From NCBI GenBank assembly GCA_000092065.1, contig CP000594.1: DNA of 64,000 nt, one strand, 5' to 3'. The notes under the pieces were generated by a model. The model worked only from the letters and a program-made list of their open reading frames with translations. It was not told where the DNA came from and did not search any database. Made by a program: the position numbers and the translations under genes. Below are positions 1,068 through 51,753 of the stretch, in pieces (position 1 is the first letter of the stretch; each line of letters starts with the position of its first letter). Origin of the DNA: Ostreococcus lucimarinus. Taxonomy: Eukaryota.

Positions 1068-1371
1068 CGCGTCGAGCGCGTCGAGCGCGTCGAGCGTCGG
1101 CGCGCGCGCGAATGGCGTCGCGCGCGCGTGGCGGCGGATGGCGGCGATCGACGTCGCGCGCTCGATCCGACGCCGTTCGCGCGGCGCGCGCGGAGGGGCG
1201 CGCGCGAGCGTTTTTATCGGCGAGTCCGTCCGCGCGACGACGCGCGATGACTCGCGTCGCGTCCACGCGCGACGATTCATTCATTCGTGCATTCATTCAC
1301 GGTTCGCTGGCTACCGCTAACGCGCGCGCCGGCGCTGGCTATCGCCGATGCGCGCGACGACGCGCGCGCGA

Positions 1372-1614
1372 TCACGCGCCCTCGAGCGTCGCCGCGCGCG
1401 CCTCGCGCACGGCGCCCGCGAAGGCGTAGAACTGCGCGACGCTCATCTCCATCTGCTCGAACCAACGCCCGTCTCGCGCGTCGTCGTCGCTTCGCGCGTC
1501 GTCGTCCTCGAGCGTCAGCCTGACGACGACGCGCGAGACGCCGCTGGCGTTCGTCTCGCTCGTGCTCGCGGTCACGGCGAGGCGCCAGGCGAGATCGACG
1601 CACCGCGGCGGCAT
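1372..1614 (-). CDS. Small hypothetical protein (80 aa), ATG start confirmed
   Basis: ORF with a non-degenerate composition (…WFEQMEMSVAQFYAFAGAVREARAATLEGA). It may equally be an upstream exon or UTR of the neighbouring genes. Confidence 0.15.
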   Translation of the reverse strand: MPPRCVDLAWRLAVTASTSETNASGVSRVVVRLTLEDDDARSDDDARDGRWFEQMEMSVAQFYAFAGAVREARAATLEGA

Positions 1615-1646
1615 GGAGTGCGGCGCGCGCGGGACACCGCGACGCG

Positions 1647-2657
1647 ATGGCGAACCCGTTCGCGACGCTCGACGGCGACGCGCGCGGCGACGACGGGCGA
1701 GACGACGGCGAGAGTGGCGACGCGGCGCGCGGCGCGCGCGCGGCGACGGCGGCGACGCGCGCGAGACGGACGACGACGACGACGACGAGGGCGGCGAAGA
1801 AGCGCGAGACGGCGGCGCGGCGAGCCGAGGCGGAGGCGATGCGCGCGCGCGCGCACGCGGCGATGGCGATGGAAAAACGAGAGGACGATCGTTGGGGGAA
1901 GGTGGCGAAGGGATCGGGAATCGCGAGGAAGGCGGCGAAGGAGATGGCGAAGACGATGACGACGACGGCGGCGAGGGACGACGACGACGCGACTGGAGAG
2001 ACGACGACGGAGACGACGGAGACGACGGAGACGACGACGACGACGAGTGATGCGATGGCGAAGGTGAGTGAGGTGTTCTGGCACACGTTCGAGGACACGG
2101 GGGCGTCGTGTTGGTGCGTGCGAGTGGAGGACGAGGACGGCGAGTCGACGACGATGTCGATTACGAAATCCGTGCCTCGCGCGAGAAAAATTCCGAGCGA
2201 TGGGGGCGAACGACCGGTGTTGGTGAGCGGCGAGATTCGACTATTACTCGCTGAGTGGGACGATCGCACGCGCATCGATCGAGCGAGGCGCGCGAAGGCG
2301 AAATTGAAGGCGGCCAAGGCGGCGGCCAAGGCGGCCGCGGAGGCGGCCGAGGCGCCGGCCGAGGCGCCGGCCGAGGCGCCGGCGGTCGAGACATCGCCCG
2401 CGCCGGTGGCGGAGACGCTGTCCGCGGCACCGCCTGATTTCGGCGCGACGCGTAGAGCGCCGCCGCCCGGGTTCGAAAAACCTGCGTTTCGAGTCGTGCA
2501 CGTGCCGGTTGTCGATCCTGCTGTCGAGGCGAGGCAACGCGAGCTCGAGGCGCAAGTCGCGGCGTTGCAAGCGCAACTCGCCGCACAGCAGATGATGCAA
2601 CAGACGACGTACGCGCCACCGCCGCCAAGCTTTTCGGGAGGATCATCGATCTGGTAA
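1647..2657 (+). CDS. Hypothetical protein: acidic/Thr-rich N-terminus, conserved-looking core (VSEVFWHTFEDTGASCWCVRVEDEDGE…PVLVSGEIRLLLAEWDDR), Ala/Pro-rich repeats and a coiled-coil C-terminus
   Basis: ATG at 1647 confirmed. The TAA stop at 2655 is followed by an AT-rich 3' region. It is convergent with the PDZ gene. Overlapping minus ORFs 1277..2329 and 1572..2084 are R-rich artefacts. Confidence 0.35.
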   Translation: MANPFATLDGDARGDDGRDDGESGDAARGARAATAATRARRTTTTTTRAAKKRETAARRAEAEAMRARAHAAMAMEKREDDRWGKVAKGSGIARKAAKEMAKTMTTTAARDDDDATGETTTETTETTETTTTTSDAMAKVSEVFWHTFEDTGASCWCVRVEDEDGESTTMSITKSVPRARKIPSDGGERPVLVSGEIRLLLAEWDDRTRIDRARRAKAKLKAAKAAAKAAAEAAEAPAEAPAEAPAVETSPAPVAETLSAAPPDFGATRRAPPPGFEKPAFRVVHVPVVDPAVEARQRELEAQVAALQAQLAAQQMMQQTTYAPPPPSFSGGSSIW

Positions 2658-2732
2658 CTCGTTATTTGTTCGTTGTAATTGTCACATTGACAAATCTAGC
2701 AAACGCGAGCGCAAAATAATCTACAAATAATC

Positions 2733-3185
2733 TCAAGACGATTCTTCGTCGTCGCAACGCTGGAACTCGAGCTTCATCTTTCGAGGCGCGGGCCACGTAG
2801 AGATAGCCGCCATAACGACGTCGAACGACTCTCCACGAGTGGAAAATCTGATTTGCTCTTCGCCTTTTTTAACGCTCACTCCGCCGTAGTCCATTTCGCT
2901 GTTGAACACGATCGCCGACGTAGCGATTAATCTATCACCCACGCTAATCAGGCCGCTCTGCTCGGCCGCACCGCCGGGCACGAGTTCTTCGACAAAAATA
3001 TTTCCATTTTTATCGTTCGCCAGAAACATGCCGAGCGGTTTCTTCAGTTCCACCGCGTATCTCGCGCATCCCGGGGGAACCGGTTCGTCGTCCGCCGCCG
3101 CCGCGCGGCGGCGGGTGAGCCGACGCCGAGACGGTCCCGCGCGCGGCGTCGCGACGGCGCAACGAATGGCAGCACTCGTTGTCAT
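2733..3185 (-). CDS. PDZ-domain protein with N-terminal transit-peptide-like region
   Basis: ATG confirmed. PDZ-like core LKKPLGMFLANDKNGNIFVEELVPGGAAEQSGLISVGDRLIATSAIV. The N-terminus is Arg/Ala/Thr-rich and acid-free, like an organellar targeting peptide. Confidence 0.5.
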   Translation of the reverse strand: MTTSAAIRCAVATPRAGPSRRRLTRRRAAAADDEPVPPGCARYAVELKKPLGMFLANDKNGNIFVEELVPGGAAEQSGLISVGDRLIATSAIVFNSEMDYGGVSVKKGEEQIRFSTRGESFDVVMAAISTWPAPRKMKLEFQRCDDEESS

Positions 3186-4387
3186 CTGCGTTCGAAAATA
3201 AGAAGCGAAAAAGTGAAAATGTCAGTCTTCGTCCGCTCGCTCGTTCATCGTCTCAGAGAGTATGGTCACAAAATATCCACATTGGGTATTCGGTAAAGTT
3301 TTTGGGTTAAAGGTTTTCATCTTCCTTGACGACGGCGCGATGAAGTCGAAGAAAAACGAACGTCGAGAACGACGACGACGACGACGGATGTAGCAGGGGT
3401 TCTAGAGGCCGTTAGTCATGGACAGACACGAAGCCCGCTTTACCCAAGCGTCACTCTACGGGCGTCTTCTGACGCGTCCGCGAATCTTTGAATCGCGGCG
3501 CGCACGTTCGAGATAAATCTCGCACCCAACATCGATCGAAAAGTAAAATGAATCCATTCAGCGGCGTGTCAGTGTTTCGTGAATCTTTTCACCGCGCCGA
3601 AACGCTCTAAAGGTGTCCTAAGATATATTGACGAAGTCATCACCCACACCGCCGAAACGGCGAGAAAAACCAAACAAACAAACCAACGATCGCGTCAGGA
3701 ATCAAAAATGATTTCGTTTCAAAGGAAGCCACTGAACACGGAGTCCTCAATTGAACTATGCCTTGATTCGAGCATCACCCGCGTCGTCGTCCGTCGTCTT
3801 CGTCGTCTTCGTCGTCGCTCGACGAGAGAAAAATCCACCCGCCGCTCGCGCGCGTTTCCAAGCCTCAGCTTAACGAGATTCACAAGTTTGATCGTCACCG
3901 AAATCAGATGGTACGGACAAGTGTGTCTCATCATCGGCTTCGCGCGCGCGACGGGCGGTCGCGCGTTTTCGTTTATCCGGCTAGCGTTCCGGCGTCGCGG
4001 GACCGGCCCGCGCGCCTCGCTCACGGTTCGCCGCGTCTCGCGCGTCGGCTCGCGCTCTCGCGCCCGTCCCGAGAGACGCGCGCTCGATCGCGTGCGTCAT
4101 CGCTCGACGGTGGTTTATCTCGGCGCGACCGAGCGCTGCGCGCGTCATGAGCGGGACGCGGCAGTGACTCTAGAGTGGATCGGCCTCTCGCGTTCTCGCG
4201 CGTCGCGTCGTCGTCGTCGTCGTCGTCGTCCTCGTCGCGTCGCGTCGCGTCGTCGCGCACCTCGTCGCGCGTCTCTCGCGCGCGCGTCTCGCGTTCGCGC
4301 GCGCTCGCGTCGCGCGGTGCGGTCGGGTCCGATTCGCCGCCGCCGCCGCACACCGCGACGCCGCGTCGACGCGCCGCGACGACGCGC

Positions 4388-5422
4388 ATGGAGACGGACG
4401 CCGACACCGGACGGGTGCGCGTGAAACCTGCGCTCGAGGCCGTGCGCGCGCACGACGGCCCGCTCGAGATCGATCTCGGGACGCTGCGCGTCGTCGACGC
4501 CGCGCCGCTCGATGTCACCGCCGCCGACTCGGGCGAGGCGGAGGCGCACGCGCGCGAGCGCGCGCGAGACGTCCTCCAGCGCCTGGTCGCGGAGTTGTTC
4601 GCGCTGCCGAGCGAAACGGACGCGCACGGACGGTTCGCGCAGTTGCCCGAACCGACGACGACGTTCCCGAGGCTGCGCGCGTTGCCCCCGAGCGAGGCGC
4701 CGCTGACGAAGTGGGAAAAGTTCGCGAAGGAGAAGGGGATCAAGAAACGGAAGCGAAGCAAGGAGGTGTTCGATGAGAAGACGGATGAATGGAAACGGCG
4801 GTATGGGTATCAACGCGCGAGGGACGGGAACGATGTCATCATCGCGCCGGGGAAGATGACGGACGTGCCGGGGAAGACGGAGGACCCGTTTACGCGCGAG
4901 GAGCGAGAGAAACGGGAACGGACGTTGAAGAATCGAGAGAAACAAGATAAGAATTTGATGAACGCGGTGGCGGAGAAGGGTGCGAAGGCGTTACCGCCGA
5001 CGCTGCGATTGGCGGTGACTGGTAAGAAGGACTCCGTGGGGAGCGGGAAGCTAGGGAAACGGGAGATGAAGGACGTGGCGGCGCGCGTCTCGCACTCCAC
5101 GGCGTCGGTCGGCAAATTCAACGCCCCAGTGCCGGGAGACGATAAGGTCAAGGTTCGCGGCAAGCGACGTCAGTTTGCGAGCGTGACGGATATGGATTCT
5201 GAGCGTAAGAAGAGCTCGGAAATCATCGATAAGTTGCTCGCGAAGGAGAAGCGCGGCGGCGTCGTCGACGTCAACGCGGCGGCGCGGAAGATTCAGCAAG
5301 AGAAGGAAAAGGCGAACCGCGTGAGCAAGCGCAAGAAGGCTGACGGCGAGAGTAAGGAGCGGGCGTCCGGTAAGCGAGGGAAACCATCCGCAGCCGGAGG
5401 CGCTCGCGCGAAGAAGAAGTGA
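4388..5422 (+). CDS. RRS1: Ribosome biogenesis regulatory protein RRS1 homolog
   Basis: LEIDLGTLRVVD … PLTKWEKFAKEKGIKKRKRSKEVFDEKTDEWKRRYGY … a lysine-rich C-terminus matches the RRS1 family signature (W-x-KFAK-x-KGI). The track ORF 4175..5422 begins at a GTG, and the first ATG in frame is at 4388 (METDADTG). The upstream part is Ser/Arg low-complexity. Confidence 0.7.
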   Translation: METDADTGRVRVKPALEAVRAHDGPLEIDLGTLRVVDAAPLDVTAADSGEAEAHARERARDVLQRLVAELFALPSETDAHGRFAQLPEPTTTFPRLRALPPSEAPLTKWEKFAKEKGIKKRKRSKEVFDEKTDEWKRRYGYQRARDGNDVIIAPGKMTDVPGKTEDPFTREEREKRERTLKNREKQDKNLMNAVAEKGAKALPPTLRLAVTGKKDSVGSGKLGKREMKDVAARVSHSTASVGKFNAPVPGDDKVKVRGKRRQFASVTDMDSERKKSSEIIDKLLAKEKRGGVVDVNAAARKIQQEKEKANRVSKRKKADGESKERASGKRGKPSAAGGARAKKK

Positions 5423-5582
5423 TTAGATTGTGATATAACCAAACGACGACACGACGTTAAAGAACCGTAACAAACATCGCGAGTACATGTCGCGACCCGG
5501 GGCGACCACGACTTATGTTCCCTCGTATAGTTGCGTCTTCTCATAGTGATTTGAAGTCGTAAAGTATGAAAAAAGTTGGTGA

Positions 5583-5680
5583 TCAACAGGTCCGGAGTTC
5601 GATTCTCCGAGGCCCCTACGACAGACCCATACCTAGGGCACTCGGGGTCTTAGCTCAGTGGTAGAGCGGTTGACTGCAGT
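5583..5680 (+). tRNA. Permuted tRNA-Cys(GCA): 3' half (5583-5617: anticodon-stem 3' strand TCAAC, V-loop AGGTC, T-arm CGGAG/TTCGATT/CTCCG, acceptor 3' strand AGGCCCC + discriminator T), 26-nt linker, then 5' half (5644-5680: acceptor GGGGTCT, D-arm GCTC/AGTGGTA/GAGC, anticodon-stem 5' strand GTTGA, loop CTGCAGT)
   Basis: All stems pair canonically when the upstream 3' half is joined to the downstream 5' half (acceptor 7 bp with one G-U, D 4 bp, T 5 bp, anticodon stem GTTGA/TCAAC). There is no T-arm downstream of the 5' half and no 5' half upstream of the 3' half, so the halves are circularly permuted with the breakpoint in the anticodon loop after position ~37. Confidence 0.55.
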
Positions 5681-5810
5681 TAAAAACCATTTCTTTTTTG
5701 GACGTTTCTCGTCTCGACGCGTTTAGGGCACTCGGGGTCTTAGCTCAGTGGTAGAGCGGTTGACTGCAGTTAAAAACCATTTCTTTTTTGGACGTTTCTC
5801 GTCTCGACGC
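5631..5810 (+). repeat. 90-bp x2 tandem duplication containing a second, orphan copy of the tRNA-Cys 5' half (5734-5770)
   Basis: 5631-5720 and 5721-5810 are identical by eye. Confidence 0.8.
5693..5698 (+). terminator. Oligo-T (T6) run downstream of the tRNA 5' half, a candidate RNA polymerase III terminator
   Basis: tttttt lies 13 nt after the anticodon-loop breakpoint and repeats in the tandem copy at 5783-5788. Confidence 0.3.
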
Positions 5811-5909
5811 GTAACGCGATAGACGTGCGCGCGCCGACGTGTCTTCGTGATGTCTTCGTCTAAATCAGCACTTCACTTTTTATCACAATAGTTGACGACG
5901 ACGACGCGT

Positions 5910-7706
5910 CTATTTCTTCGCGACGACTTGCGCGAAGCTCACTTTGACCTTCTTCGCCGCCGCGGTCTCCGTCCCCGCGTGTAAATCATCGTTGAGCGAG
6001 TCCAATTGCGTGATTGAATCGTCTTCTTGCATTTCTTTGCGTTTGCGAGCCGCCTTCGTATCGTCTCCCAGGGGCAAAGGTTTCTCTTCGGAGATTTTCT
6101 TTTCCTCGTCCTCCGCGCTCGCCGCTTTCTTCTCCTTCTCCGGCGCGTAGATGTCCTTGACGTAGCCGTCGATTTCTTCTTTCACGAAGCTCGGTAAATC
6201 CTTGCGCTTCAAATATTTGACGTTCGCCTGCATCCCGGGTACCCAGTTCGATTCCCCAGTCGCGCGATCCATCCACGACGTCACAGTCATTTGGAACTGC
6301 TCCACCGCGGGATTCAAGTTGAGCGAAACCTTCTCCTCCTTCTTCTTCAGGCTCGAAGGAAATAACCCCAAGAACAGCGTGACGTGCGAGTTTTCGTCCT
6401 TCTCCGGATCTTTGTACCTCGACGTGCCGGGATGCGCAAGCATTTGCCCTCCCGTGGCGTTTTCGATGCCTTGGATTAAAAGCTTGATTCGCGAGCCGAC
6501 CCAACCTTCCCACTTCTTAAAGTCATCTTCGTTCTTGGCCGAGATGGTAACCATCAAATAATGCTTGTATTTTTCTAAAAAGTTCAACGAACACCACAGC
6601 TGCTCCCACTTCGCGGTGTTTAAAAGAATCATCTTGGTCACTTCCTTGCCGCGCTTGAACTCGGCTTTGAGCACCTCGAGCGTGCTGACGCTCACGTTGA
6701 ACGTAGAGTTTTGCGCCGGATACGCCGGAGTTAAGATTTTCATCAACTGATATCGCTCTGCCTTGTTCACACGCTCGTCCCACACTCGCATCCCGGGTAA
6801 GCCTTCGTCGACGATGGGTACGAGCATCACCGGCGTCGTCCATTGCCACGCCGACCATAGTTGGAAAAAGCTGTACACGAGCATGGAAGGTGCGGCGTTG
6901 GGGTACAACTGACACACGCGCGCTACTAAAATCGCCAGGTTTACGCCACCGAAAAACCCGACGACGTTGCTATACACCCCGCGCCGCTGCGCCCACAGAC
7001 GCAACGTGCGAAGCGCCACTCGAAACGCGTCGTGGTTTGGCACGACGCGCAACAACTGATCCGCCACGCGACAACCATTCAGGGATTTCACCCCTGGGTC
7101 GTCCAAATTCATCATCACCGACGTCTGACACACGTCTAAGTCCTCTGGCACGTGCGTGTACGACGGTAAGCTCGTGTACGCCATATCTATTTCAAAACCT
7201 CTAAACACGAGTTTGATTTCTGGCACGATGGCGTCGCGCACGGGCACGATGCTCTCCGTTCCAGGGTGTTTCCGCATCACGTCATAAAACGACCCTTCGT
7301 AATCATTCTCATCCCATCCAAAGAAATCCTCCTCTCGGCTCAGATGTCTCGGCCCGAGGCACAGCGTATCGATATCCGCAGCCGGTCCGTGCACGCCCAA
7401 TCTATAGCTCCCAAACGTGTACAAGTTACACGACGGCCGCATATCCTCTGTGATCCCCTTTCGCTCGCTCGCCGCCAGCACCCAGTCTTGCAACAACGCG
7501 TTTATCTCCCCCAGCACCTCCTCGCGTCGCACGCACTCGTCCGCGTCTTCGTACACGTCCTCTTCCCGCAGTTTGTCATCGAGCGCCTTGCTCAACTTTT
7601 CGTCGAACGCCGTCGGCATCTCGTTCGACATCACGCGATTCAGCGCCTCCGCGGACGCCGACTGGGTCATGACCGACGGTGCGGAGGGCGTCTGCGCGCC
7701 GATCAT
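5910..7706 (-). CDS. PAP: Nuclear poly(A) polymerase (canonical PAP)
   Basis: ATG confirmed. Nucleotidyltransferase motif LYTFGSYRLGVHGPAADIDTLCLGP. PAP central-domain motifs (VPEIKLVFRGFEIDMAYTSL, VNLAILVARVCQLYPNA). Lys/Glu-rich C-terminus with an NLS-like KKVKV. Confidence 0.85.
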   Translation of the reverse strand: MIGAQTPSAPSVMTQSASAEALNRVMSNEMPTAFDEKLSKALDDKLREEDVYEDADECVRREEVLGEINALLQDWVLAASERKGITEDMRPSCNLYTFGSYRLGVHGPAADIDTLCLGPRHLSREEDFFGWDENDYEGSFYDVMRKHPGTESIVPVRDAIVPEIKLVFRGFEIDMAYTSLPSYTHVPEDLDVCQTSVMMNLDDPGVKSLNGCRVADQLLRVVPNHDAFRVALRTLRLWAQRRGVYSNVVGFFGGVNLAILVARVCQLYPNAAPSMLVYSFFQLWSAWQWTTPVMLVPIVDEGLPGMRVWDERVNKAERYQLMKILTPAYPAQNSTFNVSVSTLEVLKAEFKRGKEVTKMILLNTAKWEQLWCSLNFLEKYKHYLMVTISAKNEDDFKKWEGWVGSRIKLLIQGIENATGGQMLAHPGTSRYKDPEKDENSHVTLFLGLFPSSLKKKEEKVSLNLNPAVEQFQMTVTSWMDRATGESNWVPGMQANVKYLKRKDLPSFVKEEIDGYVKDIYAPEKEKKAASAEDEEKKISEEKPLPLGDDTKAARKRKEMQEDDSITQLDSLNDDLHAGTETAAAKKVKVSFAQVVAKK

Positions 7707-7833
7707 GATCGCGGGCGACGACGCGCGCGCGTCGATCGCGTCGGAGTGTGAAGTCGGGCGCGATTAATTTCGACGGCGCGACCGTATTTCGCGGCGCGCG
7801 CGCGCGCGTTCGTTCGCGCGCGATTCGGTTTCG

Positions 7834-8724
7834 ATGCTCGGGACTCAATCTCGCGGTCACGCCGCGGGCGATCGCAAGAGCGCGCTCGTGCGCTACGGAC
7901 TCGTGGCGATCGCGTTGATGAATGTCGGTGTCGAATTGATTAAGATGTACTTTGGAACGAGCGCGCGCGGCGTGGAGGGGCGATACGGACGCGTGCGCGC
8001 GGAGGTGGCGTCGGTAAATCATCGCACGTCGTCGCTCGAGCGGACGATGCCGCGCGCGGATGCGCTGGCGCCCGAGGTGGAGGAGACGCGGGCCGAAACG
8101 GCGGCGGCGACGGCGCTGGCGCCCGAGGTGGAGGAGACGACGACGCCGGCGAACGTTCGGCGGCGAGAGAGAGAGTGCGGTTCGCCCGCCGTCGATGGCT
8201 ACGCGCACGTAAATTTGACGTGCTTGGCGATGAGTGCGACGGCGAGAGAATTCGCTCACGCGTCGGCGAGCGGGCGCGAGAAGTTGCGAGCGCACATCGA
8301 AGAACACGCGTCGTACGACGGCGTGGCGGTTCGTTGGGGAATCCATCACACGACGGAAACCGCGGAGGAGTGCGGTGAGCGGTGCAAAGAACACGTGGTA
8401 AAGCCGGACGGAATCGGTGCAGAAGTTTTGCCGTGCAACGTGTTCGTTTGGTGTCCCAAAGACGTCGGTGAGGGCGGTTGCTTTGAACCAGACGCGCACC
8501 AGCACTTCGCGGGCGACTGTTGGCTCAAGTTTAGCGAGACTCCGGAGAACGTCGAGGTGAACCAGCGAGGGGCCAACGACGCACCTGGGTTCGTGAATAA
8601 GGATGGAAAGACGTTCGCCGAGCGACACGCGAACGCGCCGAAATTAGTCCATTGGTCGAGCGGCGTGCTGCTTCCGGAATCGATGACAGCTTCGAGCACG
8701 CTCGGGCCGCGCGCAACGTGGTAG
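7834..8724 (+). CDS. Hypothetical membrane-anchored/secreted Cys-rich protein
   Basis: ATG confirmed. Hydrophobic N-terminus (LVRYGLVAIALMNVGVELI) and a C-terminal half with 7 Cys. It is divergent from PAP with a 127-bp shared promoter region, and is the last gene before the GC drop. Confidence 0.35.
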   Translation: MLGTQSRGHAAGDRKSALVRYGLVAIALMNVGVELIKMYFGTSARGVEGRYGRVRAEVASVNHRTSSLERTMPRADALAPEVEETRAETAAATALAPEVEETTTPANVRRRERECGSPAVDGYAHVNLTCLAMSATAREFAHASASGREKLRAHIEEHASYDGVAVRWGIHHTTETAEECGERCKEHVVKPDGIGAEVLPCNVFVWCPKDVGEGGCFEPDAHQHFAGDCWLKFSETPENVEVNQRGANDAPGFVNKDGKTFAERHANAPKLVHWSSGVLLPESMTASSTLGPRATW

Positions 8725-8768
8725 ACATGTAGAAAATTTGTTGTTATACATATACTTGTACACTTTGA

Positions 8769-9389
8769 TTACTGTACGCGGGCCATCCAGTTTGCAGGCG
8801 GTGACCAGGTTGTCACCGCCGCATGGTGATCTCTCTGGTCTTTAGGTGGGCAAGGCCCCATAGCCAAAAACTTCAAAGAACTACTATATTCCAGCGTGTC
8901 CAGTGCTTCCACATTGCGAAGCTTTTCGTCATCTCTTTTTTCCACCAACACGCAGAATTCATTTACTTCCACTGCCCAGGCCTGGCCGGTGTTTCTTTCT
9001 ATTTTGTACATGCCGGCTCTGCATTGGAGGCCCATATTGAAAAGCTTAGCCTCGTTGACTTGCTAACAAACTTTCTCAAATGCCTCTACCATTTTCGGCG
9101 GTGTGCAACCCACCGGGAAGCGTATAGCAGACCAGCATCGGATCGTTTCACAAATGGGCCACCCCCCCATGTCCTTCAGTGCGCCGTTCAAGATATCTAC
9201 AAGCTCGATCGCCACGGGTGAGTTTCTCGACCAATCTGGGTCACGGGCACGCATGTAGAGAGGCGACGGCGCATGGGTTTTCAGCAGGGGGGCGATGCGC
9301 CAGGACGTGAAGTCGTGTTTCCCCTGAACTTGAAGAACTGCGAGCAGGTCGGGGTGATAGAATGCTGGGGTGCTCAGGCAACAACCCAT
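8769..9389 (-). pseudogene. MGCCLS… (N-myristoylation/palmitoylation-like start) hypothetical ORF interrupted by a single in-frame TAG at 9063-9065. Track ORFs 9063..9389 and 8769..9035 are the same frame.
   Basis: Both ORFs share a frame (start coordinates are both 2 mod 3). Only one stop and 9 codons separate them. Both halves have a non-degenerate composition. Confidence 0.3.
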
Positions 9390-9595
9390 GATGCGCTGTG
9401 TTTCTTTTCTCGGCCACGCGCGCGTTTTCTTTTGTCCGCCTCTCTCTCGCGCGCGCGTCGTCGAGTGATGCTGGTGCCGCTCGTGACGGATTTAAGGGCG
9501 TGAACACCCGCGTGTAAAAGCAGACACTTTATATAGCACTTTGGGAGGTTAAAAGGTGTCCCAAAGTCTCATACATTGGCCTATACTTTGGCAAC

Positions 9596-9637
9596 ATCCC
9601 GCGCTTTGATTACTGTACAGTAATCAAAGCGCGGGAT
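9596..9637. repeat. 42-bp perfect palindrome atcccgcgctttgattactgt|acagtaatcaaagcgcgggat
   Basis: Read directly. A half-copy (ctttgattactgtacgcggg) at 8763-8785 and a 9+6+9 hairpin (ggcggtgac caggtt gtcaccgcc) at 8800-8823 bound the ~0.85-kb unit containing the MGCCLS pseudogene. Confidence 0.85.
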
Positions 9638-9730
9638 ACCGTGGAATGGACTCGGAAAAACCTCTAGAAGTTCGGCGGCGCCATTCCGCGCGCGATCTCA
9701 GCGGGCGAGCGTGATCACCAACGTGGACCG

Positions 9731-11800
9731 ATGAGGCACCGATCGTACCGTGTATGCAATGGACGCACGCTCGCACTCATCGCGCTCGTCGTGCTTGTCG
9801 CACGCACGCAGCGCGTCTTCGCTTCGCCGACCGACGAGCGAAGATTCTGGACGCCCACTGTCGTCGCCGTGGACGACGGCGTCGGTTCGAAGATCCGACG
9901 CATGGGAAACGATGTGGAGAAATCGAAGTCTTTCGTGTTTGAGAACACGGTAGCGGAATCGCTGACAAGAGATGGCGTCGTCGCGGTGCGAGTGCGAGGC
10001 TTGAACGAAGCAAAGACACAGAGCGCAAAACTCTTCATGGATTGCGCGCGGGTTACGGATAATGTTGCAGTAGAAGAGTACGACGATGGATCCAGGCGCG
10101 TGACGCTCGCCACGACGACGAAGCAGAGGGGGAGTGGTTTCGGGGAACCCACGTCCAAAGCATGTAAGAAGTTCGAGGTCACGACGAAAATGCTTCGCGC
10201 GAAAGTTTCTGTGGCCGAACAAGCAATCACGGACGTGTTTCAGAGCAAGTTTTCAGATCTGAGTGAATTTGCGAACGGGGTACTGATGCAGGGAGAGAAC
10301 GGCGAGACCTATAAAACTTTCTCGGAAGTATTGAAAGACTGCGAGCACCTTGAACATTTTCACGGCTACACGATTTCACCACAACAAAAATTGAAGAATA
10401 GTAAAGTGCGGACGATCGAAGAGCACACGGATCAAGGTCTACTCATCGCATTCGTCCCGGCCATAATTGTCGATGCAGTGACGGGAAGGCGCGATAAGTT
10501 TTCCTCAACCGGCGATTTTTATATGACGCTTCCTGGGCATCGCAAGGTGCTTCTCCATTTTGACACGCTTCCAGACGATGTCGTTATTTTTATGCTGGGT
10601 CAAGCAATCGAGCAACAAATCACTCCCAAACTTGCAAACGGCCTTGAGCTTCACGCTGTACCACACGCAATGGATATGCCCAATCTTAAATCTAATCAGT
10701 TCAGATTTTGGTATGGGCGAATGTTCCTCCCACCTGAGAATGCCTTGGACGAAAGCCATGGTCTCTCTTTTGGGACAGTGCGCGCTAACATCATCGAAGA
10801 TTTCGCACGTGGGCTGAAGACATCCGTGGGATGTGGTCGTGAGCTCCTCTCCGTGGCAGGGAGCGGTTCATGCGCTAGCAACCAGATATGGTGCTGGATG
10901 CGATGCATGAATCACTCAGCGCCGGCGAGCAATCCACTCACATGCAGGACGGGTCATAGTGTCCAATGTTTGAGCCAAAGACTGGAAGTCTGGACGGATG
11001 CCGACAGTCATGGTGATTATAATCCTGGATGCACCGACGAGACCAACGAGACAAAGCCCGTCACCGATCCACCGACCATCCCAGCTCGAGCAGCCTCTTG
11101 TACAGATGGAAACGCCTGGGAAACTTTTTTGAACCACTCCGAATATGAAAACAGCTTGGAGCTGTTACAAGATAAGTTATATTTACTCTGGACTGTTCAA
11201 AATGGTAAGTTAAAAGCCCGAGTTGCCTTCAATGGCAAGATTGGTTGGTTTGCTCTCGGCATCAAAAACCTAGGAGGGAAACACAACGGGATGAACGGGG
11301 CGAACATCGTCATGGGCGTCCACGACCCTCATCCAATGGGTCACGACAGCAATTTCGGTTCTCCTTATGTTGGAAAGAGCAGTGCGAAACAATACAAAAT
11401 CCACGATCATTCTTCTGCTTTTCGACATTGGAATGACACTGCTGACGTTGCCTCACCCTTCGTGAGTTCGACGACGTTCAATTCATGTTTCAGTTGTATG
11501 CGTTTCGAGACGGCCTCGATACGGGGCGAGGCTCTGAATCTCACCTCTGGTATTAATGAACTCATCTGGGCTGCTCATGATGGCACTTACCTCAAAGGCT
11601 ACCATGAAGTACAAGGATTCGATCGGAGAGATGCACGCGGGCATCTCACGCTTGACCTGACGCGAAATTACGGTCGTGTAACGTGCGGCTTCTCAAGAGG
11701 CTGGGCTGCGGCGAGTCAAACATGTGCTTTTTCGGCAGCAAGCACTCCTTCAGCGATAGTTTCTATATCCATTGCTGTCATTGCAATCCTCGTTATGTGA
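9731..11800 (+). CDS. Secreted/membrane-anchored protein with an N-terminal 2OG-Fe(II)-oxygenase-like domain (HTD…H) and a C-terminal DOMON-like domain, plus a hydrophobic C-terminal tail (GPI/TM-like)
   Basis: ATG confirmed, followed by a signal peptide (LALIALVVLVARTQRVFA). HxD…H: EEHTDQGLLIAFVP … KVLLHFDT. DOMON-like: GKIGWFALGIKNLGG…MNGANIVMG…SAFRHW…ELIWAAHDG. C-terminus IVSISIAVIAILVM. Confidence 0.45.
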   Translation: MRHRSYRVCNGRTLALIALVVLVARTQRVFASPTDERRFWTPTVVAVDDGVGSKIRRMGNDVEKSKSFVFENTVAESLTRDGVVAVRVRGLNEAKTQSAKLFMDCARVTDNVAVEEYDDGSRRVTLATTTKQRGSGFGEPTSKACKKFEVTTKMLRAKVSVAEQAITDVFQSKFSDLSEFANGVLMQGENGETYKTFSEVLKDCEHLEHFHGYTISPQQKLKNSKVRTIEEHTDQGLLIAFVPAIIVDAVTGRRDKFSSTGDFYMTLPGHRKVLLHFDTLPDDVVIFMLGQAIEQQITPKLANGLELHAVPHAMDMPNLKSNQFRFWYGRMFLPPENALDESHGLSFGTVRANIIEDFARGLKTSVGCGRELLSVAGSGSCASNQIWCWMRCMNHSAPASNPLTCRTGHSVQCLSQRLEVWTDADSHGDYNPGCTDETNETKPVTDPPTIPARAASCTDGNAWETFLNHSEYENSLELLQDKLYLLWTVQNGKLKARVAFNGKIGWFALGIKNLGGKHNGMNGANIVMGVHDPHPMGHDSNFGSPYVGKSSAKQYKIHDHSSAFRHWNDTADVASPFVSSTTFNSCFSCMRFETASIRGEALNLTSGINELIWAAHDGTYLKGYHEVQGFDRRDARGHLTLDLTRNYGRVTCGFSRGWAAASQTCAFSAASTPSAIVSISIAVIAILVM

Positions 11801-12119: not shown

Positions 12120-12310
12120 GAGATCCGGAGATCCGCCGGTTGACGCCCCGCGGGGCGTGTGTGCCAGCCCGTAGGGTTTAGGGGATCGGACATATGGAGC
12201 CTCACTATTAAGACACACTGTCATATATATTAATGGATTTATGACAGTGTGTCTTAATAGTGAGGCTCCATATGTCCGACCGCGGGCACACATCCCCGCG
12301 GGGCGCCAGC
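12120..12310. repeat. ~190-bp foldback: perfect 37-bp arms (ggacatatggagcctcactattaagacacactgtcat / rc) around an 18-nt AT loop. Arms are extended imperfectly by cgccccgcgggg(c/a)gtgtgtgcc, and the left arm contains tagggtttagggg.
   Basis: Read directly. A related end-sequence (ggcgccccgcgggtgtgtgtgtcagccc … gtcggacatatggagcctcaca) recurs at 29290-29410. Confidence 0.75.
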
Positions 12311-12439
12311 AGGGTCAGGTCGCAATTTTGCGTTTTCCCGCTCAGCCTTCACTAGAAACGTGTCTAAACCGGCCACTTTTTAAATCTTGTTTTTTGCTAG
12401 GTTTTTACTGTCTCCGGGTCTCGGAGGAATCGCGTGGAG

Positions 12440-12955
12440 TGACCGGTTATGGGTTTAGTGGTTGGAGGTCCTGTGAGGAACTTTCTCTCCGTCACTTTTT
12501 TTCCATTTTTGAAAAAAAAAACGTCACATGTAAACTTTATAAATAAACCTATAACCTATAACCTATAACCTTGAAGGTTGAAATTTCTTAAGACCCGGGG
12601 TCCGCTGTTAAGGGGGGTCGGAACGCACAGAGAAATCGGGCTCGTCGTCCTGTGTATCAGCAGTCCTGTAGTAGGAAGTCATTTTTTGCTGTTTTGGGCA
12701 TCCCTTGCGTTCAGAGATTCCATTCTGAAGAAATCTTAAGCGAGGGCACCAAAAACTCAAGGTCTCAACGGTCGCACGCTTCAGACTAGTTACATCTTCT
12801 GTACCTCCAAGCAGCGAAGTGCTCCTGTGTGTCAGGTTTGTCTCACCAAACACCGAGATCTTCGAGAAGACGAACACGTTCCGCTGAGAGTTTGCACGTG
12901 CACCTGTCTTCCTTTGCCTGATTTGTGAGCCATCACCCCAGATTTGAATGTGGCG
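12440..12955. repeat. Dispersed repeat R, copy 1 (~515 bp). An inverted partner lies at 46500-47045, ~90% identical.
   Basis: Manual alignment of the reverse complement of 46500-47045 to 12440-12955. It includes the (ctataac)n microsatellite and the spurious ORFs 12608..12877 / 46505..46726. Confidence 0.75.
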
Positions 12956-13013
12956 TATCTTATCGCGACACTCTCGCTTAAGATCTCTTCAGAATGGAAT
13001 CTCTGAACGCAAG
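12704..13013. mobile_element. MITE-like 310-bp unit with 41-bp terminal inverted repeats (cttgcgttcagagattccattctgaagaaatcttaagcgag … ctcgcttaagatctcttcagaatggaatctctgaacgcaag, 40/41). Solo TIR copies at 27029-27069 and 46718-46758.
   Basis: TIRs read directly. No clear target-site duplication. The left TIR and interior are shared with repeat R. Confidence 0.45.
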
Positions 13014-13244
13014 CCGTGGATGTATTAAACTGTGAACGAGGCTAGTCATGGTTCGATTTTTTGGATTACAAGTGTAGGTCTACTTTTACGTTTCGTGGAC
13101 TCCGCTTGAGTCGGCCGATGTCACCACGTCAGGTGTTTCGAGTGCACTAGAGACGTGACCGCCGATACACAGGACGTCGAGCTCGGCGTGCCTGATTTCA
13201 CGACTCGGTGACCATGGTTTGAAACCGAAATGACCATCGGCTTC

Positions 13245-13375
13245 AGGCCCAGGCGCGGCCGCAATGCTACTTTAAACTTAATATATTTTTTTTGAAAAAA
13301 GAGTAGTAAGAGTAATAAAAATAAACTTTTTTTTTGAGTTGGGGCACCCCAACATGATAAAACCGCACATCGCGG
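13245..13375. repeat. Module M: ggcccaggcgcggccgcaatgctactttaaactta…(AT-rich)…gagttggggcaccccaacatgataaaaccgcacatcg. The same module flanks the GIY-YIG gene of the primase element (36335-36540, with an internal 75-bp duplication, and partial at 47175-47210).
   Basis: Direct comparison. It contains the inverted repeat ttgggg-ca-ccccaa. Confidence 0.7.
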
Positions 13376-13837: not shown

Positions 13838-14821
13838 TCACGATCGAGTACCGAAGACAAAATTAGCGCACTTTTTTCTATCATCTGCAGAATGCGAGTT
13901 TGGCGCATTTTTTACTGCGTCGCAGTGTTTCTTAGCCGCTTTGCACTGTTTGGAGCAGACATGCGGACATGCTGCCACCCAGGTTGGGTTGGAACATAGA
14001 TGGCGCCTGCCTTCCGGCTTGCCGCAGCCCCGCGGAATCGATTCACAGGGAGCCATGTTGGGTAGATCAGGCGTTTCCCAGACGGTACCAGAGATACCAT
14101 CGAAACCTGGGCACGTGTAATCGTCACTCAGAGTACAGCCAGTCGCCGCCGAGCCTTGACAAGATCTTTTCCAACCACCCAAACGCCTATGGCCCTTTGT
14201 ACGCTTTTGGCAAGTACCCGTCGACACGTTGTACGCTTGTTTAGCTTCCTTAGTATCAAACGAGTGACACACGCATGAATCAATCAGTGGCAAAGCGCGG
14301 ACCTGTACGGCCGGCTCATGCTCGCACGCCCAACACGAGTGTCCTCCAATACTGATCCCGAACCGCTGGCGCATCTCTGACGCGCAGACTTTCGCGCGTT
14401 CCTCCTCGTTGAGCTCCATTCCCGCGCAGGCACAAGCGCACTGTGCACGCGACCACTCCACTCCATCTGTCGCACCAACATAACCTCTCATATCATTCTC
14501 CAGTTGGGCGTGTTGGTCGTGGCATATTCTCGCACACGCCGCGAATGTCTTCATAGATTCTGGTAGTCCGTAGTGCACCGCGGCCTGGGACACCGCGTCG
14601 TCATCCATGAGTTTCCACCCCGTGACCCCCGAGCTCACTGGCCGCCGCCGCCGCCCGAGCTCACTTGACGGTGCATCCAAATCACCGCCCGCATCGCCTG
14701 GGTCCGTCGCCACCGCCGTGAACGGCGCATCCGCGTCAACGCCCGCGGCGACGTTCAGCGCCGCGGCCCCCACGAACAGCGCCAACGTCAAAGGTGACAC
14801 ACATTGCCTTCGAAACCCCAT
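13838..14821 (-). CDS. Secreted Cys-rich protein (~327 aa after signal peptide MGFRRQCVSPLTLALFVGAAALNVAAG)
   Basis: The track ORF starts at TTG 14962. The first ATG at ~14820/14821 is followed by a signal peptide. There are >25 Cys in CxC/CxxC arrays (…QCACACAGMELNEE…SCWACEHE…). Confidence 0.4.
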   Translation of the reverse strand: MGFRRQCVSPLTLALFVGAAALNVAAGVDADAPFTAVATDPGDAGGDLDAPSSELGRRRRPVSSGVTGWKLMDDDAVSQAAVHYGLPESMKTFAACARICHDQHAQLENDMRGYVGATDGVEWSRAQCACACAGMELNEEERAKVCASEMRQRFGISIGGHSCWACEHEPAVQVRALPLIDSCVCHSFDTKEAKQAYNVSTGTCQKRTKGHRRLGGWKRSCQGSAATGCTLSDDYTCPGFDGISGTVWETPDLPNMAPCESIPRGCGKPEGRRHLCSNPTWVAACPHVCSKQCKAAKKHCDAVKNAPNSHSADDRKKCANFVFGTRS

Positions 14822-15111
14822 CCCGCGCGCGCGATCTGCTTTTTCGTCCACGCGGCGTCCACTCGCGAACGCGCGGATACCGTTCGCTCTCTCAGCGCCC
14901 TCCACGTCCGATCGGTTCGGAAGTGACGCGCGCGCGCAGAATAGTTTCGCGTCACAACGCAATTATTCATTCCCGTGTTGATTTTATTCTATTCCAGGGG
15001 GTATGGGTATAGAGTTTACAGTGCCTTCGTACGAGATATTTCCCAACACCCTTTAGTACCAAAACCTAATTGCGTATCTTCCCTCACTTTCCGACGTCAC
15101 GCGCGCACGCG

Positions 15112-28644: not shown

Positions 28645-29145
28645 TTAAAAACAGCACCAAATATTTTTTAAACAGCACCAACATTTTTTATAGTCGGTTT
28701 CATCGGTTTCCTCGATGGTCGAGCCTAGTTCCAGTTCACCGAGGAGCTGCTCGTCTTCTTCATGCAACCACGGTTCGTCCGCGCGTCCAGGCACAACGTT
28801 CGGACACTGGTTCACAAAATGGCCCAACTGACCACACCTGAAGCATCGATCACCCGCACCTCGCATCATGAGTTCGATAATCTCGAGGTGCGATCTCGGG
28901 AGAACGATCTGACTGAACGTCCCACCGCGTACGTTCTCAACGCCGTGTTCGGCCATGAGTCGTAACACGTGCTTGTCCTCGTCAAATGGTCCACATTCCT
29001 CGATGAACAGTCGACGGTACGGTTTGTATTTTTTCGTCCACGCGGCACCCATGCCGCGAAAATGGTCGTCGATCCTCGACCTGTTGTCGCACCGCCCCAC
29101 GTAGTATTTGCCCTGCGCACACGCGAGGCCGTATATCAGTGACAT
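28645..29145 (-). CDS. GIY-YIG nuclease domain protein with a CCHC zinc knuckle and a Cys-rich C-terminal tail
   Basis: ATG confirmed. GIY-YIG: LIYGLACAQGKYYVGRCDNRSRIDDHFRG. Knuckle CFRCGQLGHFVNQC (CX2CX4HX4C). C-terminus KKCWCCLKNIWCCF. Confidence 0.5.
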   Translation of the reverse strand: MSLIYGLACAQGKYYVGRCDNRSRIDDHFRGMGAAWTKKYKPYRRLFIEECGPFDEDKHVLRLMAEHGVENVRGGTFSQIVLPRSHLEIIELMMRGAGDRCFRCGQLGHFVNQCPNVVPGRADEPWLHEEDEQLLGELELGSTIEETDETDYKKCWCCLKNIWCCF

Positions 29146-29873
29146 GATCCATGTGGTCTAGTGCCCCCGGGCCGTCGTCGCGCGCGCCGCGGTGTGCGGG
29201 GGCACGCAGACCAGCGGCGGCGGTCGAGTCGCAGATGCGTCCATCACTGACGTCGAACGAGAATCGGGATCACCCGTGGGTCCGTTGGCGCCCCGCGGGT
29301 GTGTGTGTCAGCCCTCAGGATAACCAGCCGCGCGAGGATCAAATCAAACATGGACCCGAACTCGCGGGTGTCGACACGGTCGGTCGGACATATGGAGCCT
29401 CACAATTTGGCCGTATGACCACATATATTAATTTATGTATGGCTATCATCCCGTGCTATCCCGGGGGTAAATTACAGTACAGTAATCTATACCCGGGATA
29501 GCGCGGGCTGAATAGAATAAATCCAGTAATATACGTTGTTTTTTGGTGTTGCACATTTTTTTAGTGTTACACCGCGCGTGCAAGCGACACTTCGTCCCGC
29601 GGTGGCGGAAGTTCTGTCATCTATAGAAAGCGATCTTCACCATTGATCAGTTCGATTAGCTCTGTTCTTTGAGCGTACTCATTATTCTTGGATCACTTAA
29701 ATAATCTTAAGCGGTGACAGAAAAAACAAAATTTTGGTGATTTTGGTGATAATCCGACCGACCGAACAACACGCGCGCTCGAACGAACGTCGAGTGTTAC
29801 GCCATCATTCGTCCGCGCTCTTGCACGTGAACTCGAGGCACCGACGAAAGAAAAATCACCACATAATCGCCCG

Positions 29874-51691: not shown

Positions 51692-51719
51692 CGCGTGCGT
51701 CGATGAGTGGCGCCGACAC

Positions 51720-51751: not shown

Positions 51752-51753
51752 GC

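Follow-up and report, generated by a model that had tools for sequence, protein, structure and literature searches.

A low-GC accessory island probably interrupts a standard, otherwise syntenic Ostreococcus lucimarinus chromosome

The window analysed here is a stretch of 64,000 nucleotides of Ostreococcus lucimarinus DNA that begins inside the RRP12 gene. The 5' part of this gene (positions 1–1045, minus strand) has a local GC content of 70–81% and is collinear at 99% with metagenome contig L001, where the RRP12 HEAT domains are called. It is followed by a lineage-specific gene of 336 aa (1647–2657, plus strand, GC3 0.81), which is called at 336–339 aa in L001 and L002 and gave no match in a Pfam search, and by a PDZ-domain protein gene (ABO99756/ABO99723; 2733–3185, minus strand, GC3 0.65; Pfam PDZ, E = 1.5e-6) whose product matches an O. 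lucimarinus protein exactly. The ribosome-biogenesis gene RRS1 (4388–5422, plus strand; Pfam RRS1, E = 4.9e-48) has a 344-aa model in L001; its ORF starts at 4175, and a GC peak of 74.5% corresponds to its GC-rich, low-complexity N-terminus. The nuclear poly(A) polymerase gene (PAP, ABO99758/ABO99724; 5910–7706, minus strand) was recognized by its Pfam PAP domains and an exact O. lucimarinus protein match. Its overall GC is 55% but its GC3 is 0.73, and it is therefore standard DNA despite looking low in GC. Direct repeats at 5700–5813 were considered as a target-site duplication and rejected, as Tandem Repeats Finder showed a perfect 90-bp tandem duplication. The last gene of this standard flank encodes an Apple/PAN-domain protein of the ABO99581 family (7834–8724, plus strand, stop codon at 8722–8724), named after its protein cluster and with an orthologue beside PAP in all relatives.

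Right of this gene lies DNA of another kind, which we refer to as the island. Its first large gene encodes a DOMON-domain protein (ABO99582/ABO99547; 9731–11800, plus strand, GC3 0.54). A Cys-rich ORF of 374 aa (13838–14962, minus strand; 355 aa in wild contigs), to which no function is assigned, is divergent from the adjoining giant gene, an uninterrupted ORF of 3958 aa (15070–26946, plus strand) with Pfam matches to two G8 domains and a CEMIP beta-helix. The product of this giant gene has a C-terminal membrane anchor and is predicted to be a surface protein; the same gene is present in wild contigs. Next comes a small nuclease-like ORF (28645–29145, minus strand) with two Pfam matches, a zinc knuckle (zf-CCHC, E = 1.5e-6) above its cut-off and a GIY-YIG domain (E = 3.5e-4, 21.2 bits) just under its cut-off of 22.6 bits. 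A cassette at 29874–37081 holds genes for a 643-aa Ala-rich membrane protein, a 490-aa protein, a truncated PrimPol copy (34065–35345; 97% identity to the full-length copy) and a 284-aa Cys-rich protein, together with a 66-bp AT-rich tandem repeat (36356–36488) and, at 36584–37081, a 165-aa ORF whose match to GIY-YIG is weak. Judged by eye, the 643-aa and 284-aa products resemble proteins that are secreted or sit in a membrane.

The cassette is followed by a giant ORF of 2240 aa with 13 DUF285 repeat matches in Pfam and an overlapping ORF of 630 aa (both within 37875–46399, plus strand). Genes of a selfish element occupy 47262–51769 (minus strand): a full-length 736-aa PrimPol plus D5-like helicase (DUF5906), a 357-aa coiled-coil ORF and a 165-aa near-copy of the weak GIY-YIG ORF of the cassette. 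A third giant ORF, of 3830 aa (52438–63930, minus strand), has DUF285 repeats and a TSP1 domain in Pfam, and also a PAN match that stays below the threshold. Many of the island ORFs, which are long and open, gave no Pfam match. Searches with Pfam, PHROGs and PDB sequences found no recombinase or transposase (DDE enzymes included) among the island ORFs tested and no capsid, packaging or integrase gene among the window ORFs tested; among the window ORFs scanned with Pfam there was no glycosyltransferase or methyltransferase gene.

A reading of the sequence alone had placed a sharp boundary at 8700–8800, with compact, extremely GC3-rich housekeeping DNA of about 70% GC on its left and repeat-rich accessory DNA of about 50% GC on its right. 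The position was accurate; a change point lies at 8720, and the first island base (see below) is 8755. The GC value for the right side was also close (52.1% on average over 8721–64000, sd 3.8), but that for the left side was too high: the mean of 1–8700 is 62.3%, and 70% is reached in local peaks of a kilobase-scale mosaic. Optimal partitioning divided this mosaic into segments of 71.1% (1–2550), 53.1% (2551–3950), 74.5% (3951–4700), 54.8% (4701–7600) and 66.9% (7601–8400). The left 8.7 kb is at the normal genome level: standard O. lucimarinus DNA averages 60.8% GC (sd 7.8, n = 95 windows of 500 bp), and the published genome average is 60% (PMC3491373). The GC profile showed the change near 8.7 kb, yet without a clean step from 70% to 50%. 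At a scale of 300 bp, the values across the transition are 0.59, 0.56 and 0.49, and they return to 0.58–0.61 at 9.2–9.9 kb. Moreover, 8720 ranks only second among the change points, the strongest in the window being at 2630.

The two sides differ in other ways. Windows of 500 bp with at least 62% GC make up 1% of 8721–64000 versus 39% of standard DNA (Mann-Whitney p = 1.5e-17), which is itself a mosaic of 50–80% GC in which 25% of such windows have 55% or less. Short GC spikes to the right of the boundary (13951–15800, 30201–30500 and 37851–38200) are at the 5' ends of genes. The average GC3 falls from about 0.75 on the left to about 0.55–0.58 on the right; the ranges of single genes (0.65–0.83 and 0.53–0.69) overlap, so that the left genes had been overstated as extremely GC3-rich. 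Self-similar repeats cover 0% of 1–8720 and 20% of 8721–64000, and the giant ORFs, nucleases, selfish elements, palindromes and repeats attributed to the right side are indeed found there. Six independent metagenome contigs (L001–L004, L018 and L025) cross the boundary, which is therefore not an assembly artefact.

To the left of the island, and beyond it, gene order is conserved. In five related lineages (L014–L016, L026 and L033) the order is cofilin-RRP12-COMM-PDZ-RRS1-PAP-Apple-RBFA-Mito_carr-ABC-HECT without a block in between, the Apple-domain gene and RBFA adjoining directly. A search for RBFA homologues gave five matches, one of which led to L026; L034–L036 also carry RBFA, and the detailed synteny reading from this set is that of L033. 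L026 has 93–97% DNA identity to both flanks and a clean empty site, in which the base 34 bp past the RBFA stop codon is joined to window position 8754. The idea that L026 represents a third species was rejected, as the nucleotide comparison makes it a relative at 93–97%. Four Ostreococcus lineages at a greater distance lack the island as well. When L026 was compared with the window and with wild contig L027, homology to the island-free sequence stopped at 8754, which sets the first island base at 8755; the left junction (8755–8777) contains a remnant junction repeat (...CTTTGATTACTGTAC, 8757–8777 by motif positions). On the other side, in wild contigs L032 and L027, a TTACTGTAC motif and an island-type repeat come within 45 bp after RBFA, and past this edge lies DNA of ~50% GC with a giant ORF that has 2886 aa or more. 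Both edges of the island are thus abrupt, the one beside the Apple-domain gene in the window and the one beside RBFA in these two contigs. The Apple-domain gene and RBFA are convergent, and the island sits in the spacer between them. No tRNA gene was found when the island border was scanned.

Proteins of the window match those of O. lucimarinus CCE9901 exactly, on a record of 708,927 bp. The DNA is thus from this strain or one nearly identical to it, which confirms its earlier assignment to the Mamiellophyceae. ABO99776, the ABCF orthologue of O. lucimarinus, shares this record with PAP (ABO99758) and lies 18 minus-strand accession numbers past it where 2 would be expected; in CCE9901 the flanking genes are thus separated by only about 16 additional gene models on one strand. 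With a length of at least 55 kb, the island continues past the end of the window and is probably larger overall. That its host chromosome is a standard one rests on the record size, the synteny and our own reading of the accession order.

Wild strains carry the same island genes in different orders, and their contigs align within the island at 95.9–99.1% identity. The DUF285 unit (37875–46399) is inverted in wild contigs, between 9617 and the DOMON gene; the length of the DUF285 gene varies from 1440 to 2740 aa among strains; and the 643aa-490aa-PrimPol cassette occurs in at least three genomic contexts in nature. These rearrangements have breakpoints that fall, to the base, on TTACTGTA/CAGTAA palindromic junction repeats. 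Such repeats are 50–95 nt long, occur in inverted pairs and belong to two families, both of which start with CAGTAAT... and are found in both orientations; the palindromic ones end in TTACTG-TA-CAGTAA. A 10-mer of the junction repeats was observed eight times against 0.12 expected, and in the island only.

One example is a family-2 repeat (9527–9615) ending in a perfect 42-bp palindrome (9596–9637); the window and the wild contigs part precisely at the centre of this palindrome, 9616/9617. Two family-1 repeats placed tip to tip (29410–29546, ...TTACAGTA/CAGTAATC...) form the left border of the 643aa-490aa-PrimPol cassette, and a third with a truncated tip (37760–37826), abutting TA/CAGTAATC, forms the border of the DUF285 cassette. 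At 51953–52056 a family-1 repeat is followed by two tandem TTACTGTACAGTAA palindromes. Some junction repeats are accompanied by (TTTAGGG)3 telomere repeats, TTTAGGG being the telomere motif of O. lucimarinus (PMC2794166), and the window has CCCTAAA telomere-like repeats at 51835–51862 and a degenerate telomere-like 14-mer at 12170–12183. A hairpin with 43-nt arms (12186–12279) lies next to the latter, and a dispersed repeat at 12437–12975 is an inverted 90% copy of 46488–47019. A short telomere-repeat insertion also exists outside the island, in the PAP-RRS1 spacer of L004, so these insertions are not specific to the island. In the literature searched we found no description of an Ostreococcus transposon with such ends, or of interstitial telomere repeats.

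Taken together, the GC change at ~8.75 kb most probably marks the left end of a large, recently acquired accessory island with ~52% GC, which is embedded in an otherwise syntenic standard chromosome and was already low in GC on arrival. The argument for the last point is one of time. Flanks of carriers and non-carriers differ by a few percent, too little for GC3 to have decayed in place from about 0.75 to about 0.55, which argues that the island DNA would have been low in GC before it arrived. The compositional boundary would then be the scar of an insertion and not a gradient made locally. As to the source, the cell's own low-GC hypervariable compartment, that is, DNA of small-outlier-chromosome (SOC) type, seems most likely by analogy with O. 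mediterraneus, where experiments show that the SOC fuses and exchanges pieces with standard chromosomes (PMC13390643). AT-biased mutation is offset by GC-biased gene conversion (PMC8557840), and structurally variable DNA, which according to the literature recombines rarely, would escape the latter; the low GC would probably be maintained in this way after arrival. The island might instead have been lost in the relatives and not gained in O. lucimarinus, although this polarity is less parsimonious.

We compared the island with the SOCs of O. lucimarinus (chr18) and O. tauri (chr19). The former has 149 kb and a GC content of 53% (PMC3491373), near the 52.1% measured here over 55 kb. Like the SOC, the island consists mostly of lineage-specific genes without an assigned function, has few introns or none and is not colinear with relatives (PMC3491373); it also shows the strong structural variation between strains. 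Outlier compartments are further marked by hypomethylation, high transcription and spatial insulation (bioRxiv 10.1101/2025.04.21.649811). On the other hand, the island is not a separate small chromosome but is embedded between conserved genes of the 708,927-bp record, and its 55 kb within the window contain no sugar-metabolism or methylation genes. The outlier-like character proposed from the sequence alone (52% versus the published 53% GC, giant surface-type genes, selfish elements, structural variation) therefore stood up, while a placement in an outlier region already described did not, given a record of 708,927 bp versus 149 kb for chr18 and flanks that adjoin in relatives. Low-GC outlier DNA of the Mamiellales has so far been described only as one region of a big chromosome plus one small chromosome, and we found no account in the literature searched of a low-GC island, or a known duplication, on another chromosome. 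An island in an ordinary chromosome together with an empty site in a relative diverged by 3–7% amounts to a natural experiment, which argues that low GC travels with the DNA and does not originate locally. Giant surface proteins that vary between strains are a type of trait expected to matter in the interactions of this alga, among the most abundant picoalgae of the ocean, with viruses and grazers.

The junctions, resolved to the base with their palindromic repeats and telomere-repeat seals, are places to seek the mechanism of rearrangement. Tc1-type transposons terminate in ...ACTG TA CAGT... beside a TA target. The island repeats resemble Tc1/mariner-pogo elements and their miniature derivatives in ending ...ACTG TA CAGT..., in starting with CAGT and in forming inverted pairs. 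They differ in that their tips face each other across TA and do not point outward around a compact element, that the units between tips are gene blocks of 0.8–30 kb, and that the window holds no DDE transposase. TA sits between the facing tips; we resolved no complete element that pairs a duplicated TA with a corresponding empty site. The Starships and lineage-specific regions of fungi are tens of kilobases long, compositionally distinct and repeat-bearing, with host-type cargo and clean empty sites in close relatives. The island, likewise lineage-specific and repeat-bearing with host-type cargo and a clean empty site, may be likened to them in behaviour only: it comes from another kingdom, and neither a tyrosine-recombinase 'captain' nor another recombinase was found in the window.

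The most substantial alternative is that the island is foreign, being a virus or virus-like element that has integrated, or a giant cargo-carrying transposon, with a GC content derived from its donor. This reading overlaps with the one we prefer. It could account for the PrimPol plus D5-like helicase gene with its 97% truncated copy, the small GIY-YIG-like ORFs, the terminal-repeat-like CAGT ends beside TA, the occurrence of the 643aa-490aa-PrimPol unit in several genomic contexts and the fact that a close relative has a clean empty site. We nevertheless regard it as unlikely. Pfam, PHROGs and PDB sequence searches found no capsid, packaging, integrase or transposase gene; IMG/VR yielded one helicase match at 26% identity and no PrimPol match; the 16-mer core of the junction repeats occurs at chance frequency in viral contigs; most of the block codes for giant host-type surface proteins; and its 52% GC equals what the outlier DNA of the alga itself shows (PMC3491373).

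The accessory island that we favour might also be built in a particular way, as an array of movable cassettes of 1–30 kb that carry giant surface-protein genes and insert, excise and invert at TTACTGTA/CAGTAA, sometimes with a telomere-repeat seal. A hypothetical recombinase or transposase would act in trans, possibly linked to the element with the PrimPol-helicase and GIY-YIG-like genes. We offer this model as speculation and think it rather improbable as a whole. If true, it would constitute a site-specific cassette-shuffling system in a eukaryote, and would explain how the outlier DNA of the Mamiellales becomes hypervariable and how it can spread into ordinary chromosomes.

That the window straddles a border of the big outlier chromosome's low-GC region (BOC1; chromosome 2, candidate mating-type locus), as the reading of the sequence alone implied, is very improbable. 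The composition would fit: that region is defined by a GC drop of 9–17% (PMC8557840), and the island shows a drop of about 10 points, from 62.3% to 52.1%, with GC3 going from about 0.75 to about 0.58. So would the layout, as both consist of a low-GC stretch with abrupt edges between normal-GC DNA of one chromosome (PMC7016971). BOC1, however, is ancient and common to all Mamiellales, with collinear flanks, whereas the island is missing from relatives, its flanks adjoining in five lineages of which one is 93–97% identical. The BOC1 region has 193–633 genes (PMC3491373), compared to about 16 extra minus-strand models from PAP to ABC. Many of the former are housekeeping genes with AT-rich introns of 40–65 bp, of which the island has none, being made up of giant uninterrupted ORFs. 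Furthermore, BOC1 exists as two deeply diverged haplotypes that cannot be aligned, while wild contigs align inside the island at 96–99%. Finally, the protein accession numbers appear to fall at ~80% of the proteome order, with a next record of 468 kb, which also points away from chromosome 2.

That there is no special boundary at all, but ordinary kilobase-scale GC heterogeneity or an assembly chimera, is hardly credible: the mosaic of standard DNA, the stronger change point at 2630 and the stepless 300-bp profile would suit it, but not 55 kb almost devoid of GC-rich windows, the shift in GC3, the confinement of repeats to one side, the coincidence of synteny break and empty site with the boundary, or the six contigs spanning the junction. 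One of these contigs, L003, has a different flank with Zip, LHC and other genes, which in CCE9901 are placed on the 468-kb record. The breakpoint is at the end of an insertion of ~400 bp shared by L001 and, judging from a matching alignment gap, probably by L002. We did not retain this flank as a translocation, as with a breakpoint at the insertion end a repeat-mediated assembly chimera is at least as likely.

The left edge of the low-GC island is an insertion junction with a matching empty site, and both edges of the island are abrupt. In a sister species (PAP 77% identical), the order cofilin-RRP12-COMM-PDZ-RRS1-PAP-Apple-like-RBFA-Mito_carr-ABC-HECT is found on three independent contigs of normal GC, and the Apple-RBFA adjacency recurs in L033, a more distant Ostreococcus contig. 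A closer relative lacking the island, L026, is 96.2% (5804-8754), 92.9% (1321-5572) and 94.4% (1-1096) identical to the window, and 93.9-96.8% identical to L027, an O. lucimarinus contig from the RBFA side. L026 links position 15237 of L027, 34 bp past the RBFA stop, to window position 8754 with about 4 bases between; therefore the first island base is window 8755, 31 bp past the Apple stop codon. L026 is the decisive contig for reading the block as an insertion. On the opposite edge, in L032, the GC of RBFA falls from 77% to 58% and GGTTACTGTAC starts 41 bp past the RBFA stop, followed by a repeat 91% identical to window 12966-13270 and then by 9 kb at ~50% GC taken up by a convergent ORF 2886 aa or more in length; L027 terminates in the same island-edge sequence. 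In the reference strain CCE9901, PAP and the ABCF orthologue (ABO99776) share the 708,927-bp record, the latter 18 minus-strand accession numbers past PAP versus 2 predicted from ancestral synteny, so that ~16 extra minus-strand gene models lie between the two and the island extends well past the window.

The sequence-only reading had drawn a sharp compositional boundary at 8700-8800, and the position is right: 8720 is the second-best change point in window GC (the best single one is 2630), with means of 62.3% (1-8700) and 52.1% (8701-64000). The contrast itself is real in mean GC, GC3 and repeats, but the step is seen only above the kilobase scale, and the left side described as ~70% GC is actually a mosaic averaging 62%. 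Optimal partitioning gave 71.1% (1-2550), 53.1% (2551-3950), 74.5% (3951-4700), 54.8% (4701-7600), 66.9% (7601-8400) and ~52-53% from 8401 onward, there interrupted by short spikes at 13951-15800 (59%), 30201-30500 (76%) and 37851-38200 (67%) and, at 36351-36550, by an AT-rich dip to 29.5%. The same kilobase-scale mosaic occurs in other standard DNA of the species. When compared in 500-bp windows, standard DNA (95 windows from L027 and from two wild left-edge contigs, L001 beyond the window and the right part of L003) averaged 60.8% (sd 7.8; 39% of windows at >=62% GC) versus 52.1% (sd 3.8; 1%) for the right part of the window (Mann-Whitney p=1.5e-17). Published values are 60% for the genome and 53% for the 149-kb small outlier chromosome, chr18 (PMC3491373).

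The two sides are better told apart by GC3 than by GC profile: 0.81 (336-aa gene), 0.65 (PDZ), 0.81-0.83 (RRS1), 0.73 (PAP) and 0.75 (Apple) on the left, 0.54 (DOMON), 0.56 (G8 giant), 0.53 (3830-aa giant), 0.64 (DUF285 giant) and 0.65-0.69 (PrimPol genes) on the right. Self-similar repeats cover 0% of 1-8720 versus 20% of 8721-64000, and the giant ORFs contain tandem arrays. In standard genes (window 1-8700, L014, L027, L001), GC climbs to 70-81% at 5' ends, in divergent promoters and in low-complexity N-termini, against 50-58% in conserved domain cores; along PAP, GC falls from 65% to 50%. Weaker 5' spikes occur in island genes (14.5-15.8, 30.2-30.5 and 37.85-38.2 kb). The most AT-rich spot of the window (29.5% GC locally) is a perfect tandem repeat of two 66-bp units at 36356-36488, and a related 28-bp match occurs in L027 just past the RBFA-side motif.

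The left side carries a partial RRP12, a COMM-domain gene, the 336-aa gene, PDZ (CCE9901 accessions ABO99756/ABO99723), RRS1, PAP (ABO99758/ABO99724) and the Apple-domain gene. A C/D-box snoRNA (3860-3939, minus strand; Rfam snoR117 at 43.4 bits, threshold 42 bits) sits in the low-GC trough between PDZ and RRS1. On the right are DOMON (ABO99582/ABO99547); a 3958-aa ORF carrying G8 and CEMIP beta-helix domains; a small ORF that combines a zinc knuckle with a GIY-YIG match close to threshold; an Ala-rich membrane protein of 643 aa; a 490-aa protein exactly annotated in CCE9901; a truncated PrimPol (34065-35345); a 2240-aa ORF in which DUF285 repeats match 13 times; a complete PrimPol of 736 aa with D5-like helicase, which shares 97% identity with the truncated copy across 345 aa; a pair of near-identical 165-aa ORFs, of which one gives a weak GIY-YIG match; and a 3830-aa ORF that has DUF285 and TSP1 domains as well as a PAN match below threshold. 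The tRNA scan of the window detected none. Seven window ORFs match the protein collection exactly and four of these (PAP, PDZ, DOMON, 490-aa) are annotated CCE9901 proteins, ABO99584 being among the exact matches; the proposed Mamiellophyceae lineage is thereby confirmed. Two recent duplications lie within the window: the PrimPol 5' half (33900-35095 versus 49363-50558; 97% identical, inverted), whose copy at 34065-35345 lacks the helicase, and a direct 1.2-kb duplication (36473-37655 versus 47148-48323; 94% identical) carrying the 165-aa ORF with the weak GIY-YIG match. Together with a 357-aa coiled-coil ORF, both look like pieces of one selfish element, with its full copy at 47.1-52.0 kb.

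Within the island, DNA has been rearranged between strains in a cassette-like manner, at junction repeats. Up to 9617 every wild O. lucimarinus contig is collinear with the window (98.6-99.8% identical from PAP leftward), and past this point each carries window segment 46897-to-38962, inverted. DOMON-anchored wild contigs have the order Apple-148aa-82aa-[DUF285 giant, 1440-2740 aa]-DOMON-...-G8 giant. The window breakpoint is the exact centre of a perfect 42-bp palindrome at 9596-9637, ATCCCGCGCTTTGATTACTGT/ACAGTAATCAAAGCGCGGGAT. In wild contigs its halves are held apart by a 141-bp element, the 9-kb DUF285 unit and ...AAATTACTGTA/CAGTAATTTTAGGGTTTAGGGTTTTGGGTTTACTGTA/CAGTAATC..., that is, two cores (facing repeat tips across TA) with three telomere repeats between; O. 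lucimarinus POT1 binds TTTAGGG-type repeats as its telomere motif (PMC2794166). The window's DUF285 unit likewise begins at TA/CAGTAATC (37817). The junction repeats form two families of 50-95 nt, with profile matches in island DNA only (9527-9615, 29410-29546, 37760-37820, 51953-52019) and none in standard flanks or relatives by profile search; the 10-mer GATTACTGTA occurs 8 times versus 0.12 expected, as estimated from sequence length alone. Furthermore, the 643aa-490aa-PrimPol cassette has at least three upstream contexts in metagenomes, joining at the core in each, with its own half CAGTAATCTATACCCGGGATAGCGCGGGCTGAATAG constant and the neighbouring half variable. In another strain context, contig L005 (10300-15753), a 602aa-490aa-PrimPol cassette adjoins cobW, GTP cyclohydrolase II and FMN-dependent dehydrogenase, housekeeping-type genes in low-GC DNA (GC3 0.46-0.54) that may be the big outlier region, so the cassette may pass from one low-GC compartment to another. 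The relocated DUF285 unit has its far end (46880-46910) in a run of AACCTAT/ATAGGTT heptamers, and in L001-L004 (~7900) this end is preceded by the 141-bp element, which has 26-nt inverted ends with CCCTAAT/ATTAGGG; this element and run may represent either degenerate telomere-like sequence or another small mobile element.

The likeness to known outlier regions stands in part, but placement in one of them is not supported. The block resembles the small outlier chromosome in its GC, the character of its genes, its hypervariability and its lack of colinearity, but is not a separate small chromosome, and no sugar or methylation genes were found among the window ORFs scanned; all CCE9901 protein matches of the window are on the one 708,927-bp record, which excludes the 149-kb chr18. 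Of the features of BOC1, the low-GC candidate mating-type region (PMC3491373, PMC8557840, PMC7016971), the block shows the GC drop but differs in the others, namely conserved position with collinear flanks, gene number with small-intron housekeeping content, and unalignable haplotypes, since wild contigs align inside it at 96-99%. Accession order suggests a mid-to-late-numbered chromosome rather than chromosome 2: UniProt A4S7K0 and the XP_0014214xx series lie ~80% of the way along the proteome order, and the record that comes next has 468,366 bp. The papers covered place outlier DNA only in BOC1 and the small outlier chromosome, terming the others 'standard' (PMC3491373, PMC7016971, bioRxiv 10.1101/2025.04.21.649811), and fusions of small outlier and standard chromosomes are reported only for experimental O. 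mediterraneus lines (PMC13390643). Against the literature covered (papers other than the 2007 genome description, the reference genome itself having been publicly available from that year), an interstitial, species-wide outlier-type island in a standard chromosome, with base-precise junctions and a junction-repeat family, would be new.

With carrier and non-carrier flanks only 3-7% apart, there would have been too little time for a GC3 deficit of ~0.2 to develop in the island where it now lies, so the island DNA would have arrived already low in GC. A foreign source, viral or a giant transposon, seems unlikely. The ...ACTG-TA-CAGT... form of the junction repeats matches Tc1/mariner-pogo termini beside TA; no transposase or recombinase was found by Pfam, PHROGs and PDB sequence search of the window ORFs tested, and the junction core occurs in viral contigs at chance frequency only. 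The most economical source would be the cell's own outlier compartment; in O. mediterraneus, laboratory time is long enough for this compartment to fuse with standard chromosomes and to copy pieces of them (PMC13390643). Low GC would then persist, because mutation is biased towards AT while gene conversion, which favours GC, depends on recombination (PMC8557840), and structurally polymorphic DNA should recombine little.

PDZ, PAP and DOMON each have two GenBank accessions, offset by 33-35 numbers, which implies that the reference assembly has a second identical, directly oriented copy of the flank-island junction of window 2733-11800, upstream by ~34 genes on each strand. Either a genuine recent segmental duplication or an artefact of assembly could account for this; no sign of it was seen in the 271-kb wild contig to which L001 belongs. 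The PAP-RRS1 3'-3' spacer (5560-5812) contains a sequence that resembles a circularly permuted tRNA-Cys(GCA) gene: the 3' half, with T-arm and acceptor, precedes the 5' half (GGGGTCTTAGCTCAGTGGTAGAGCGGTTGACTGCAGTT), and a T-run follows; ARAGORN made no call there. In the window the 90-bp unit that includes the 5' half forms a perfect tandem duplication. Among the counterpart spacers (L004 8101-8196, L001 11873-12290, L026 13650-14030), L004 has a (TTTAGGG)3-containing insert at the same spot, and a ~400-bp insert is present in L001, L003 and, from a matching alignment gap, probably L002. Finally, in L003 (11619-21222) the PAP 3' end is linked to Zip-LHC-exonuclease-choline transporter genes, whose place in CCE9901 is on the different, 468,366-bp record (ABO99938). 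Chimeric assembly via a dispersed repeat is as likely here as true translocation; the switch point is the exact end of the ~400-bp insert shared with L001.
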